A DNA stretch of 64,000 nucleotides from Runella aurantiaca (GTDB lineage Bacteria; Bacteroidota; Bacteroidia; Cytophagales; Spirosomataceae), in the NCBI RefSeq assembly GCF_003339505.1, contig NZ_QPIW01000003.1, positions 184,471-248,470 of the forward strand, in the 5' to 3' direction. The notes beneath the pieces are model-generated. The model saw nothing but the letters and a program-made list of their open reading frames with translations, did no database searches and was not told the DNA's origin. Of this stretch, positions 57,493-64,000 are shown piece after piece; the first letter of the stretch is position 1; every line of letters starts with the position of its first letter. A program made the translations under genes and the position numbers.

Positions 57493-57566
57493 TCCCGAGT
57501 AGCTCAGTCGGTTAGAGCATCTGACTGTTAATCAGAGGGTCGCTGGTTCGAGCCCAGCCTCGGGAG
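57493..57566 (+). tRNA. tRNA-Asn (anticodon GTT)
   Basis: Cloverleaf: acceptor TCCCGAG/CTCGGGA, D-arm GCTC-AGTCGGTTA-GAGC, anticodon arm TCTGA-CTGTTAA-TCAGA, T-arm GCTGG-TTCGAGC-CCAGC, discriminator G. CCA is not encoded. Confidence 0.9.
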
Positions 57567-57577
57567 CCCTAAAAATC

Positions 57578-57616
57578 AAGCACTTACGAGATAATTCTTG
57601 TAAGTGCTTTTTTTAT
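57578..57616 (+). terminator. rho-independent terminator after the tRNA (aagcacttac / gtaagtgctt + T7)
   Basis: 10-bp perfect stem, 12-nt loop, then tttttttat. Confidence 0.75.
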
Positions 57617-57638
57617 TTGATACACAATTTGATACACA
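57615..57638. repeat. tandem direct repeat 2 x 'atttgatacaca'
   Basis: Exact 12-bp unit repeated head-to-tail just 3' of the tRNA-Asn terminator, at the edge of the island-like region. Confidence 0.6.
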
Positions 57639-57661
57639 ACTCACTGCTCACCCATTCTTCT

Positions 57662-57922
57662 TTACCCTTTTAAATAAATGCTAAAGAGGGAATGTGTGTA
57701 CGTTTTCCCTGAAATAACATAGAATATCCGACTGGGAGGTTCAAGTTTAACCATTTCTACCTTGTATTGGTAGCCTTCAAAAATTTCTTCCCAATTGAGT
57801 CTGCCAATTACAATGAAGGGACAATACAACCTACGTAATTCTCCTTTCTGATTCACTACCATAATTGAGAATGGGTCCAAATAATTAAATTGTTCATATC
57901 GGTCAATTGTAGGTGTTTCCAT
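57662..57922 (-). CDS. small hypothetical protein (86 aa)
   Basis: ORF between the tRNA and the DUF3871-like gene. No recognised motif. Confidence 0.4.
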   Translation of the reverse strand: METPTIDRYEQFNYLDPFSIMVVNQKGELRRLYCPFIVIGRLNWEEIFEGYQYKVEMVKLEPPSRIFYVISGKTYTHSLFSIYLKG

Positions 57923-57970
57923 AAAATTGTTGGATTAAGGGACCGTATTTAACCGGTCCCCTTTGGTGAA

Positions 57971-60976: not shown

Positions 60977-61037
60977 TTTATTAAGTTAGATTTTGATAAA
61001 GTCCCAGAAATTTATTTAAATACTGACAATTATTATA

Positions 61038-61448
61038 TTAATTTAGTCGTAATAATATAATAGTAAGTGTTACAAAAAACAATGTAACTAAACAGCCAGT
61101 ATTTCTCACGTCAATTTTTGTAGGAGGGATTCCCTTAGCGTAGCAATGATTACAAATGCTAAAAGCAATTTTATGGGATGGTTCAATAAATGTTTTTCTT
61201 CCATCAATTGGGGCCTCTCCGCAAAAGTGACATATATCATTACGAATCAACCCTTTCGATGTTAAAAATTGAAACGCTTCAACATCACTAGTTATATGCA
61301 TAACAGTTAAATCGGGCATTAACCTATCCAGTTTGTAATCAATGTATCGTGGCTCACCATTAAGGATAAGCTTTTGACGAAAACCGTTATCATTTAGGGT
61401 TTTGCATAGGGCACCCATGTATAAATTTAGCTGTGAAATGTCTTCCAT
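61038..61448 (-). CDS. hypothetical zinc-ribbon protein with C-terminal TM tail anchor
   Basis: CHFCGE…CNHCYAKG gives four Cys (CxxC…CxxC). C-terminal 'CLVTLFFVTLTIILLRLN' is hydrophobic. Confidence 0.5.
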   Translation of the reverse strand: MEDISQLNLYMGALCKTLNDNGFRQKLILNGEPRYIDYKLDRLMPDLTVMHITSDVEAFQFLTSKGLIRNDICHFCGEAPIDGRKTFIEPSHKIAFSICNHCYAKGIPPTKIDVRNTGCLVTLFFVTLTIILLRLN

Positions 61449-61530
61449 ATTTTATTATTTAAGTAAAAATTTGAAAATATACCCAATATAATGGGTGGAT
61501 TGTTAAAAAGAAACAGCTCAGTTTTGGGCT

Positions 61531-61758
61531 GTGACAAAAATTCGTGATAACGGCTTCTTAAAAAGGTTTGGTGAAAACCTCCGTAGGCTCAGAGAACTGA
61601 AAGGTTTAAGCCAAGAGGAACTGTATTTCAGAGCCAATCTGTCTAAGAATCAGGTAGGTAACATTGAGAGGGGAGAAGTAAATACCACCATCAGTACTGC
61701 CTATGCCCTCTCCCAAGCTTTAGGGGTTGAACTACCCGAACTTTTCAAGTTTGAATAA
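61531..61758 (+). CDS. XRE-family helix-turn-helix transcriptional regulator (75 aa)
   Basis: 'LRRLRELKGLSQEELYFRANLSKNQVGNIERGEVNTTISTAYALSQAL' is a Cro/C1-type HTH. Confidence 0.8.
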   Translation: MTKIRDNGFLKRFGENLRRLRELKGLSQEELYFRANLSKNQVGNIERGEVNTTISTAYALSQALGVELPELFKFE

Positions 61759-61961
61759 ACTACTTTTTAGCCTAATTGCCATTAATTGAATCAAAAAGTT
61801 ATCAAGCGGTAGCTACCCAACCAATACACTACCCAATATATGCCTTTGGGTTGGCTAGTTGTCGAATTGGATCATTCACTTTTGAACTCGAAAACTAAAC
61901 CCAACCAACCCAACCCCCTATATACCTGCTTGTTTTGGTTGGGTGGCTTTACATCAGTATT

Positions 61962-62657
61962 TCAGGCCAACAACTTTTCCAATTTCGATTTCCATTTCTC
62001 CCAATCAGGCATCATTTTGGTTTGGAGGTCGATGAATTTTTGTGTGTGGTCGTGATGGACAAGATGGCAGAGTTCGTGAATAATTACATACTCAATGCAG
62101 CCCTTAGGTGCTTTTATCAATTCGGGGTTCAAAATGATTTTACCCTTGGGGGTGCAACTTCCCCAGCGAGTGGGCATGTCTCTTAAAACAATCGAAGATG
62201 GCTCTACGTCATACACCTTGAATTTATCAATTAGTGGTTGGGCTATTGGGGGGAATTTTGCCCGTGCATGTTCCAAATACCACAGGGTAACCAACTCTTT
62301 GACCCGTGCTTGCTCTCTGGCTCGTACTTCAATATACCTTCCCTTAATTCTGACTGTTTCAGGCACCCCGTAATCAATTTTAAGCCGATATTGCCTGCCC
62401 AAATAAAGATGGGTTTCTCCGCCAATGTATTTGCGGGTTGGGGTTTTAGGGTAAAAGGACAAAAAGAAGCTTTGCTGTTTGATTATCCAAGGGGCTTTTT
62501 TTCTGACAATTTCCTCAATTTTATCCAAAGGGGCATCCATGGGTGCTTTGACAATTATTTCCAATTCAGGATTTACTGTAATACCCAGAGATTTACGTGT
62601 CCCGTATTGGAGCTTGAAGGTTATTGTTTTGGACCCAAATTGAATGGAATGAATCAT
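61962..62657 (-). CDS. DUF45/YgjP-like zinc metallopeptidase (WLM/M48-like HExxH)
   Basis: 'CIEYVIIHELCHLVHHDH' HExxH-like motif. Its ATG at 62655-62657 overlaps the upstream hsdR TGA (ATGA). Typical partner of type I R-M hsdR. Confidence 0.75.
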   Translation of the reverse strand: MIHSIQFGSKTITFKLQYGTRKSLGITVNPELEIIVKAPMDAPLDKIEEIVRKKAPWIIKQQSFFLSFYPKTPTRKYIGGETHLYLGRQYRLKIDYGVPETVRIKGRYIEVRAREQARVKELVTLWYLEHARAKFPPIAQPLIDKFKVYDVEPSSIVLRDMPTRWGSCTPKGKIILNPELIKAPKGCIEYVIIHELCHLVHHDHTQKFIDLQTKMMPDWEKWKSKLEKLLA

Positions 62658-64000
62658 GCTTTGTACCGTATTTTGGCTATTTCTACACATTTGCTGGCTA
62701 GTTCTTCGGCTTCCAAAATTGGCATTTGGAGTTCATCAATGAGGTATTCCCCAATGTAAAAGTTAATCTTCCGAACTATGTCCAACTTATTAGGCCAATC
62801 AACCACTACATATCTGCGAATAATGGCATCCGTTTCTTGTGCAAAAGTTATGCCCTGCTCCTGTGAGAGCTTAATGGAAGACACAATCAATCGGTAAAAG
62901 GCAATGGCCTCTTCCTTATTTTGTAAGTCAGTTGGAATGTCATCTCCTTTTTTACTGATAGCCTGCTCTCGGTATTCTTTCAGTTTTTTGATAGCCTCCA
63001 ATTCTGAGATACGAAAGGCCCGTAAATCAGCAATGGTTTGCTGAATGAGTTCAGATAGCCTTTTGTAAAAGGTTGGGTCTTCATCCATTCGCTCACTGAT
63101 GTGTTTGCTTGTTCTACTCGCAATTGTCTCAGCTTTGGCCCTACTGCCTACCACTTTTTCCAACTCTTTTTCAAAAGCAGTGGCATCCAAGATGCTGACC
63201 TGCTCAGTCAGTCGGATGACCTCCTCAGTGGTTACGTGTTGGTCAAGCAGTTTTTGGAGCTGCTTCTCGTATTTTTTGAAATCAACCCTGTCTGAATAGG
63301 TGTTAACGACTGCATTTCTGAGGTTGGTGAAAAACTTAAAATGGCTTAAATAAAGCGATTTTGTCTTTTGAGGAGTGTTGTTTTCATAGTCTAGGGAGGA
63401 AAGTGCTATTTTTAAGCACTTGGCAAAAGCAGTAAATTTTTGGTAAAACTCTGTTCTTATTGCTTCGTCAGCCAAAAGGTTTGAGTAGCTTACGATGTCC
63501 AGTTTATTGGAAATGGATTTAAAAAGGTCATTCAGCACTGAATGGCGTTGAGGTAATTTTTTTATCTCTTCTTTAACATCGGTGAGTGTACCCTGCAAAT
63601 CATCCTTGTCAAATTCAGACAAATCGTTGTACACATTCATTGCTTCATCCAGTTCTCCAAGAATGCCTTCATAATCAATGATAAAGCCACATTCTTTGCC
63701 TTCGGCTACTCGATTTACCCTTGCTATTGCTTGCAAGAGGGTATGCTCTCTTAACTTTTTACAAACGTACATGACCACCACACGCGGTTCATCAAATCCT
63801 GTCAACAGTTTGTCAACTACAATTATGAGCTCAGGGTAATCCGTTTTTTTGTATTGATTTATCAGTTTTTTTTCAAAGTCCTTTCCAAATTTAGCCTCCA
63901 TTTTTTTGTAAAAGGCCACTACTTCATCCGTGGACTCTTCGTGAATATCATCATTACCTTGGCGGTCATCAGAGGGGGATATGATTACTTCAGTGGTAAC
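62654..64000 (-). CDS. hsdR: type I restriction enzyme HsdR, C-terminal part (gene runs off the window end)
   Basis: Helicase motif VI-like 'LQAIARVNRV' and the C-terminal helical domain. The reading frame stays open upstream of the track's GTG start through position 64000. Confidence 0.75.
   Translation of the reverse strand, partial: VTTEVIISPSDDRQGNDDIHEESTDEVVAFYKKMEAKFGKDFEKKLINQYKKTDYPELIIVVDKLLTGFDEPRVVVMYVCKKLREHTLLQAIARVNRVAEGKECGFIIDYEGILGELDEAMNVYNDLSEFDKDDLQGTLTDVKEEIKKLPQRHSVLNDLFKSISNKLDIVSYSNLLADEAIRTEFYQKFTAFAKCLKIALSSLDYENNTPQKTKSLYLSHFKFFTNLRNAVVNTYSDRVDFKKYEKQLQKLLDQHVTTEEVIRLTEQVSILDATAFEKELEKVVGSRAKAETIASRTSKHISERMDEDPTFYKRLSELIQQTIADLRAFRISELEAIKKLKEYREQAISKKGDDIPTDLQNKEEAIAFYRLIVSSIKLSQEQGITFAQETDAIIRRYVVVDWPNKLDIVRKINFYIGEYLIDELQMPILEAEELASKCVEIAKIRYKA

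Follow-up and report, generated by a model that had tools for sequence, protein, structure and literature searches.

Gene content beside tRNA-Asn

The DNA analyzed here, hereafter the window, is a stretch of 64,000 nt from Runella aurantiaca, and the segment under study is its last part, 57493–64000, which a preliminary description made from the sequence alone had taken for an island-like, mobile segment at a transfer RNA (tRNA) gene. The sole tRNA in the window, as called by ARAGORN, is tRNA-Asn(GTT) at 57492–57569 on the plus strand; it would represent the target gene of the island in regenerated form, i.e., attL. The gene is followed by a conserved AAAATCA box (57573–57579), by a terminator hairpin on the plus strand (57578–57614; a 14-pair stem at 57578–57609, then a T-run to 57614), and by an exact tandem repeat of 2 × 12 bp, ATTTGATACACA x2 (57615–57638, plus strand). 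The tRNA, the terminator and the exact 12-bp tandem repeat are all found at the positions given in the preliminary description. This repeat is the sole perfect tandem repeat within the window; at no more than one mismatch, ATTTGATACACA has four matches there versus 0.48 expected by chance from shuffles, and within the window there are no further copies of the repeat and no second tRNA-Asn piece. The only other TRF match in the window is an imperfect tandem, CAAACAAAGG x2.8, at 9845–9874. As a separate observation, a (G)AAAATCA box in this position, after the tRNA 3′ end and ahead of the hairpin, is kept at different tRNAs in the related loci L085, L086, L090, L092, L097, L103, L108 and L113; it may serve in processing or as a binding site close to the core.

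Gene families were assigned by profile searches with Pfam, PHROG, NCBIfam and PADLOC. Seven minus-strand genes had been counted between the tRNA and a regulator gene on the opposite strand, of which six are credible (86, 328, ~287, 116, 164 and 136 amino acids, aa). The four closest to the tRNA form a module that is kept from Runella to Emticicia and Pedobacter at 42–90% identity, and that is transcribed towards the tRNA, probably under the control of a divergently encoded XRE repressor. The first module gene (59887–60237, minus strand) encodes a 116-aa protein with no family match in Pfam (the module proteins are also blank in NCBIfam and PADLOC), for which a five-strand, one-helix OB-like barrel is predicted, making it a possible binder of single-stranded DNA. 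It is separated from the second gene by a strong intrinsic-terminator-like hairpin with a 13-pair stem and a T-run (59835–59864, minus strand); this, read as 59864–59835, is the only strong internal terminator found, where several small proteins with terminators of their own had been described.

The second gene encodes a P-loop ATPase of the AAA_24 family and Sak4 superfamily (58935 to ~59798, minus strand; ~287 aa), with a match to PF13479 (E 1.1e-13, 51.9 bits against a cut-off of 27). The open reading frame (ORF) comprises 333 aa (58935–59936) and contains the Walker A motif GSSGSGKT, however, the start is most likely Met47 (~59798), because the related proteins measure 287–298 aa. Among PHROGs the best match is phrog_1366, an unannotated family (4.5e-77), and the Sak4-like phrog_124 reaches only 1.4e-7; no match was found among PDB sequences. 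The earlier assignment as a Sak4/AAA_24-like ATPase is retained for AAA_24, on the Pfam match, and for Sak4 is taken as a superfamily resemblance. The DUF3871 gene is confirmed (57971–58957, minus strand; 328 aa), with a PF12987 match above the gathering score that covers profile positions 7–318 of 318 (392 bits, E 1.6e-117). The last gene of the module (57662–57922, minus strand) encodes an 86-aa protein that matches nothing in Pfam, PHROG, NCBIfam or PADLOC, and that is 61–72% identical in L082, L085, L086, L113 and L114 and 42% identical in L115.

The AlphaFold2 model of the DUF3871 protein is confident (pLDDT 85) and resembles phage proteins of the DUF932/DUF945/TIGR03299 type in BFVD (E 1.5e-7 to 1e-4, TM 0.40–0.55); no solved relative of the model and no sequence relation to solved proteins could be detected, and a literature search returned no functional information for DUF3871 or DUF932. 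We infer that the four genes constitute an XRE-repressed module for DNA replication or recombination that is used after excision, and consider this the weakest part of the account.

The regulator on the opposite strand is indeed a helix–turn–helix protein of the XRE family (61531–61758, plus strand; HTH_3 E 1.9e-15; PADLOC ‘control protein’ 1.2e-13), encoded divergently from the module operon and 80–85% identical in L082 and L114. A palindrome, ACCCA-N6-TGGGT (61481–61496), in the intergenic region between the XRE gene and the operon is kept in L082 and L114 while its flanks diverge, and is a candidate operator. A sigma-70 promoter scan returned fewer sites than were found in shuffles, with a consensus that is not appropriate for Bacteroidota. 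The leftward operon begins with a gene for a 136-aa Cys-rich protein (61038–61448, minus strand; GC content 0.343; no significant family match in Pfam), followed by one for a 164-aa protein with an N-terminal hydrophobic segment (60482–60976, minus strand; no family match in any of the four collections) in a low-GC zone (0.335).

On the far side of the XRE gene lie two minus-strand genes, one for a YgjP/DUF45 metallopeptidase-like protein (61962–62690; PF01863 E 9.7e-56), the other for a type I restriction R subunit, HsdR, of which the C-terminal 448 aa are seen before the window ends (62654–64000; T1R_D3; TIGR00348 hsdR, partial, 1.2e-30; PADLOC REase_I 7.6e-64). Their coupling, as described before, can be read at the junction, where the DUF45 ATG overlaps the HsdR stop codon as ATGA at 62654–62657, or by 37 nt if counted from the upstream ATG. 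The cargo of the window would be a type I restriction–modification (R-M) system with a DUF45 partner, represented here by the C-terminal part of HsdR; the adjacent HsdM and HsdS subunits are expected past position 64000. The closest public homologues of this HsdR are only 70% identical and reside mostly on short contigs, the 28-kb context of one of them (L117) is unrelated, and the protein is also unrelated to the HsdR of R. salmonicolor. The genes for the 164-aa, 136-aa, DUF45 and HsdR proteins are present in this copy only and absent from the related elements compared. In the convergent gap between the XRE and DUF45 genes, nested inverted repeats, ACCCAACCAACCCAA / TTGTTTTGGTTGGGT plus 18-nt arms, occupy 61811–61948; they may act as a bidirectional terminator at the junction of the conserved part and the cargo.

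Synteny, composition and related elements

The rsmG gene nearby served as anchor for a comparison of 80 loci. Of these, L001, a Runella metagenome-assembled genome with 94% nucleotide identity, is closest to the window; it is collinear with the window over 53360–57567 and has no match beyond. When the segment was compared with same-size core windows, its GC content was 0.386 versus a core mean of 0.450 (standard deviation, s.d., 0.016), and its tetranucleotide distance 0.292 versus 0.145 (s.d. 0.031) in core windows, i.e., 4.7 s.d. above; on both measures the segment departs from the core by roughly 4 s.d. The compositional check proposed in the preliminary description thus reveals a shift of both measures, and the view of the segment as an island agrees with this shift and with a synteny to the nearest genome that stops at the 3′ end of the tRNA.

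The same element end is found at other tRNA genes. In R. rosea (L085) and R. salmonicolor (two strains, L082 and L086), the DUF3871 and AAA_24 proteins are 88–89% and 88–90% identical to those of the window, respectively, the DNA of the module is ~82% identical, and the module adjoins tRNA-Met(CAT), with the same hairpin and tandem repeat between its last gene and the tRNA. In the metagenome contigs L113 and L114 the same arrangement adjoins tRNA-Thr(TGT). The recurrence of hairpin and repeat at tRNA-Met and tRNA-Thr assigns the terminator and the repeat to the element and not to the chromosome. It had been reasoned that the segment would be core DNA if the same gene content stood beside tRNA-Asn in all related genomes; this is contradicted by the module adjoining tRNA-Met and tRNA-Thr elsewhere. 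The region was accordingly rejected as core chromosome or prophage, on the grounds of the synteny break, the module at other tRNAs in sister species and a 21-kb relative in which Pfam detects no virion genes; core DNA or a degraded prophage end is exceedingly improbable, even if the weak Sak4-like PHROG match and the XRE regulator have a prophage-like appearance.

The 21-kb relative is the element of R. salmonicolor L086, which lies as a whole (~21 kb) between two copies of tRNA-Met. Its genes are, in order, a tyrosine integrase, two unknown genes, HsdM, PDDEXK_4, HsdS, HsdR, a PLD-family protein, small genes and the four-gene module, followed by the repeat, the hairpin and the tRNA. The integrase is matched by Phage_int_SAM_5 (4.9e-22) and Phage_integrase (6e-18), and a 24-mer identical to the repeat of the window is present beside its start. 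A second relative, the metagenomic element L108, is almost complete at 5.3 kb, with the integrase at the far end and the 24-mer at both ends. The preliminary description had placed an integrase and a second att copy at the far end of the element, and this is how the 21-kb R. salmonicolor element and the 5.3-kb metagenomic element are built; likewise, its suggestion that the repeat is att-related is supported by the occurrence of the same 24-mer at both ends of complete relatives, with one copy beside the integrase. By analogy, the integrase and attR of the window copy itself are inferred to lie beyond 64000; within 57570–64000, Pfam detects no tyrosine integrase.

On the other side of the same tRNA-Met, an 80-aa GIY-YIG ORF is inserted just 5′ of the gene in R. 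salmonicolor (L082 11539–11850; L081; L086 ~22047–22289), and 21 nt of the tRNA 5′ end, aaccaactgagctatgggccc, are duplicated along with it; R. rosea (L085) is without the insertion. This looks like a small insertion of the homing-endonuclease type.

Between module and integrase the elements carry a variable cargo slot, which is occupied by different defence systems in the relatives: type I R-M and a DrmC-like PLD protein in L086; type I R-M and CBASS (cyclase, TIR-STING) in L082, from another R. salmonicolor strain; DndD/PbeC and a DndH-like protein in L085; DrmA (DISARM) in L115; and SspB in L003 (Runella sp. MFBS21).

For the 6.4 kb that can be seen, Pfam and PHROG identify no genes for virions or packaging (capsid, portal, terminase, tail), and none appear in the Pfam list of the complete 21-kb L086 element; relaxase and type IV secretion families of Pfam are also missing from both, although there may be an unrecognized oriT. 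The layout, i.e., an integrase, an XRE switch, a replication-like module and no virion genes, is compatible with a phage satellite, in which the XRE switch and the module of OB-like, AAA_24 and DUF932-like proteins would replicate the excised element for packaging by a helper phage. Such a dependence would fit with the match of AAA_24 to the phage family phrog_1366 (4.5e-77), with the resemblance of the DUF3871 fold to phage DUF932-type proteins, with the divergent arrangement of the XRE gene and the operon around a conserved palindrome, with the lack of transfer and structural genes in L086, and with the precedent of comparable tRNA/tmRNA defence islands that are moved by a jumbo phage (PMC12595487). 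However, the searches revealed no gene for a capsid, the small terminase subunit or packaging redirection, DUF3871 has no relatives in IMG/VR viral contigs, the repeat occurs in only two viral contigs, and no helper is known. The PHROG searches with the unknown proteins of L086 and L108 gave essentially no match. We regard the satellite interpretation as unlikely.

The notion of tRNA-Asn as an integration hotspot is borne out in Spirosomataceae, where at least three unrelated element types occupy this gene. L001 (4211–5796) and L004 (11148–12640) carry another element, with an integrase directly 3′ of tRNA-Asn that is 21% identical to the L086 integrase; this element also brings a hairpin and three CA(T/C)ATACA repeats of its own. 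In L009 (11554–17734), the tRNA-Asn element comprises a VirE-like gene and a primase (toprim) besides its integrase. No att fragments were found within 10 kb in L001, L004 or L009. In a more distant genome, L002, a tRNA-Asn-like fragment is located ~50 bp upstream of tRNA-Asn (11071–11240).

The tandem repeat and the predicted crossover

When metagenome contigs were scanned for ATTTGATACACA x2, 26 were found to carry the exact 24-mer, and 23 of these could be placed in one of two contexts. The motif is absent from all 80 control Bacteroidota loci, and a literature search found no report of the ATTTGATACACA repeat sequence. Chance, slippage or a transposon footprint as the source of the repeat was ruled out by its presence in 26 independent contigs and at both element ends.

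In the tRNA-proximal context, a hairpin stands next to the repeat, its stem being conserved although its sequence varies, and beyond the hairpin lies a tRNA 3′ end. A complete tRNA was called by ARAGORN in seven of these contigs, i.e., Met, Gln(CTG) or Arg(ACG), and L100, L093, L096 and L104 show the repeat and hairpin with only a partial tRNA, which in the last three is the 3′ half. This half tRNA comes after an element end (L096 2106–2250, L104 1773–2160, L093 1029–1180), and in L104 it is followed by another integrase; the arrangement in L093, L096 and L104 indicates tandem accretion of elements at one tRNA.

In the integrase-proximal context, assigned by tblastn alignment to the L086 integrase, the repeat is positioned from ~50 bp upstream to ~30 bp inside the aligned region. 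The aligned integrases are 33–60% identical to that of L086, and in ~12 metagenome contigs an integrase stands beside the repeat. On the other side, ~115–127 bp away, is a piece of a tRNA, whose sequence sets in with the 5′ strand of the anticodon stem; among the pieces, read by eye, are Thr(TGT), Gln and one with a TAC (Val-type) anticodon loop. Both contexts are found in L104. A more elaborate arrangement than in the window is displayed by the IMG/VR contig L119 (~300–700), where two clusters of three slightly variant units (TGTGTATCAAA/TGTGTATCAGA/CGTGTATCAAA) flank a hairpin.

The position of the crossover can be estimated from L108, in which a block of 25 bp, TGATTCATAATCACGAGGTCGCCGG, that spans the anticodon arm and variable loop is common to attL and attR, whereas their T-arms are different. 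The shared block and the differing T-arm place the crossover in the anticodon arm, and imply that the 3′ part of the tRNA at attL comes from the element. By analogy, the 3′ part of the window tRNA-Asn is probably element-supplied, and its anticodon arm (57520–57536, plus strand) is the predicted crossover, i.e., the core of attL. The preliminary description had let the island start immediately 3′ of the tRNA; judged from the relatives, the boundary would instead lie inside the tRNA, at the anticodon arm.

L086 and L108 carry the repeat in both arms; in one it follows the tRNA end at a distance of ~46 nt, in the other it lies ~115–127 bp from the core. Within the integrases, mean pairwise identity is highest (0.45) over the first ~40 residues, which contain the conserved motif LD.R...YP.KLR.T..R.R.Y. 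L108 and L109 have the repeat but neither the XRE gene nor the DUF3871 module, and the integrase is the only gene common to repeat-bearing elements. In L003, at the same position after tRNA-Asn, both units have changed together to ATTTGCACAAG x2. Because the repeat pairs would flank the core of the excised circle in direct orientation, the integrase is the only shared gene, its N-terminus is conserved and the L003 units have changed in concert, the pairs are most likely arm-type sites for the N-terminal domain of the integrase, and the copy at 57615–57638 is predicted to be the tRNA-proximal pair.

Some observations speak against this assignment. The match of the L086 integrase to Arm-DNA-bind_5 is below the Pfam cut-off (E 3.9e-4), and the 24-mer does not vary among integrases that are only 33–60% identical to the L086 enzyme, a degree of conservation that would be unusual for arm sites. 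Another protein could therefore bind the repeat, e.g., an excisionase or recombination directionality factor, a replication initiator (with the units as iterons) or the XRE protein, or the repeat could be a footprint of slippage or target-site duplication. A footprint or chance is excluded by the 26 independent contigs and the presence at both ends; as for another binding partner, elements devoid of the XRE gene and the DUF3871 module keep the repeat, with the integrase as sole recurrent partner, the integrase N-terminus is the best-conserved segment, and the concerted change in L003 is of the kind expected for a co-evolving protein–DNA pair. Overall, a role other than that of integrase arm site is doubtful.

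Taken together, the segment from ~57520 to 64000 is, with high probability, the attL end and the first ~6.4 kb of a genomic island that was integrated by site-specific recombination into the tRNA-Asn of Runella. In the orientation of the tRNA, the proposed layout would start with a tRNA whose 5′ half is chromosomal and joined, at a crossover in the anticodon arm, to the element-supplied 3′ part, and would continue with the AAAATCA box and element terminator hairpin, 2 x ATTTGATACACA and the genes. These would be followed by a tyrosine integrase reading away from the end, a second 2 x ATTTGATACACA, ~115–127 bp of AT-rich DNA and, last, the displaced chromosomal 3′ piece of the tRNA with its native terminator. 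For tRNA-Asn, the displaced fragment is predicted to start near CTGACTGTTAATCAG and to run to ...GGGAGC(C), and excision would yield a circle with one repeat pair on either side of the core, at about +70 and −130 bp. The island belongs to a family of Bacteroidota, in which the window subfamily has the four-gene module in addition.

Several points weigh against integration as described. Mobility is deduced from comparative data and not from observed excision, a circle junction or transfer. The window ends at 64000, before any integrase, second repeat pair or displaced tRNA-Asn fragment, so that the segment could be a decayed remnant. Three of the 26 repeat-bearing contigs (L087, L101 and L106), with neither a tRNA nor an integrase match, remain unplaced. 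The comparison with an empty site that had been suggested gave no clean empty tRNA-Asn in close relatives, since L001 and L004 carry other elements there. Finally, L002 has a hairpin like that of the element, with compensatory stem changes, followed by ordinary-looking genes; this hairpin is left over from an element end, or else it is the ancestral terminator that elements copy. If the former, it would illustrate how an island may lose its integrase and/or attR and persist as a fixed defence island with relic ends, which might also be the state of the window copy. Such an immobilized remnant is, however, difficult to reconcile with the intactness of all module ORFs at 61–90% protein identity to the relatives versus ~82% for the DNA, with a repeat of two perfect 12-bp units that is identical to the copy beside the L086 integrase, and with the different cargo within the shared element of the two R. 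salmonicolor strains, which points to recent activity of the family; we judge it improbable and prefer integration of a potentially intact island.

Comparison with known systems

The element is of a well-known kind, i.e., a tRNA-integrating genomic island with a tyrosine integrase and defence cargo, and it leaves the current understanding of how genomic islands work unchanged. The useful particulars are the invariant arm repeat across many tRNA specificities (at least five in the family as identified by ARAGORN), the element-borne tRNA terminator, and the link between the DUF3871 and DUF932 folds; it follows that what is annotated as the terminator of tRNA-Asn is mobile-element DNA. A bolder formulation would be that of an undescribed, Bacteroidota-wide family that targets anticodon arms with an invariant 12-bp arm pair and its own tRNA terminator, switching among Asn, Met, Thr, Gln, Arg and probably Val, and with one subfamily constituting a new class of helper-phage-exploiting satellite with swappable defence; in this full form the proposal is quite unlikely. 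For practical purposes, ATTTGATACACA x2 by a hairpin and tRNA end, or by an integrase start, provides a handle on the defence islands of Cytophagales and other Bacteroidota. Formulated as a scan signature (tRNA end, at most 60 nt, TTTGATACACANTTTGATACACA), it could delimit islands automatically and allow the variable cargo to be mined for new anti-phage systems in a group where mobile elements are poorly catalogued.

The module has its nearest likeness in the Sak4/AAA_24 modules of phages, with which it shares an AAA_24 protein above the Pfam cut-off and an adjacent, predicted small OB-like protein; it differs in that the best PHROG match of the window protein is an unannotated family, and the annealing and single-stranded DNA-binding roles are putative. 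The DUF3871 protein is similar in its predicted fold to the DUF932 ‘phage/plasmid-like protein TIGR03299’.

With regard to recombination, lambda-type attP and integrases of the IntDOT/NBU type offer a parallel in their direct-repeat sites in both arms, ~70–130 bp from the core, and in a protein built of a conserved N-terminal segment, a SAM-like domain and a catalytic domain, with arm binding predicted in the present case. Unlike CTnDOT, the element targets a tRNA anticodon arm and is devoid of conjugation genes.

The Pseudomonas islands I23, I44 and I55 (PMC12595487) are comparable as small to mid-size, att-flanked elements with a tyrosine integrase (IntY), variable anti-phage cargo and no recognizable transfer genes. 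They belong, however, to another phylum and integrase lineage, use the 3′ end of tmRNA and a 14-bp repeat, and encode AlpA, whereas the present family has an anticodon-arm crossover, an XRE regulator and the AAA_24/DUF3871 module; transfer by a helper phage, known for the Pseudomonas islands, is hypothetical for this family. Within Bacteroidota, the 10K island of Riemerella anatipestifer, for which excision and integration have been shown experimentally (PMC6764341), also resides at a tRNA gene (tRNA-Arg) and has a tyrosine integrase; there, the integrase is located beside the tRNA and a 53-bp direct repeat is found downstream of it, whereas in the present family the far end is occupied by the integrase, with the crossover predicted inside the tRNA.

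A further correspondence is with islands of the Islander type (PMC4383910; Williams 2002; Hudson et al. 2015), in which a tyrosine integrase splits the tRNA gene and element sequence regenerates it, and for which an anticodon-centred attP is the commonest class (PMC4383910). The class ‘A’ islands among them share the displaced 3′ tRNA fragment at the far end, the anticodon-arm crossover and the tandem arrays (as in L096 and L104). Unlike the Islander types, the family represented in the window brings its own tRNA terminator and, in each arm, an invariant repeat of 2 x 12 bp.

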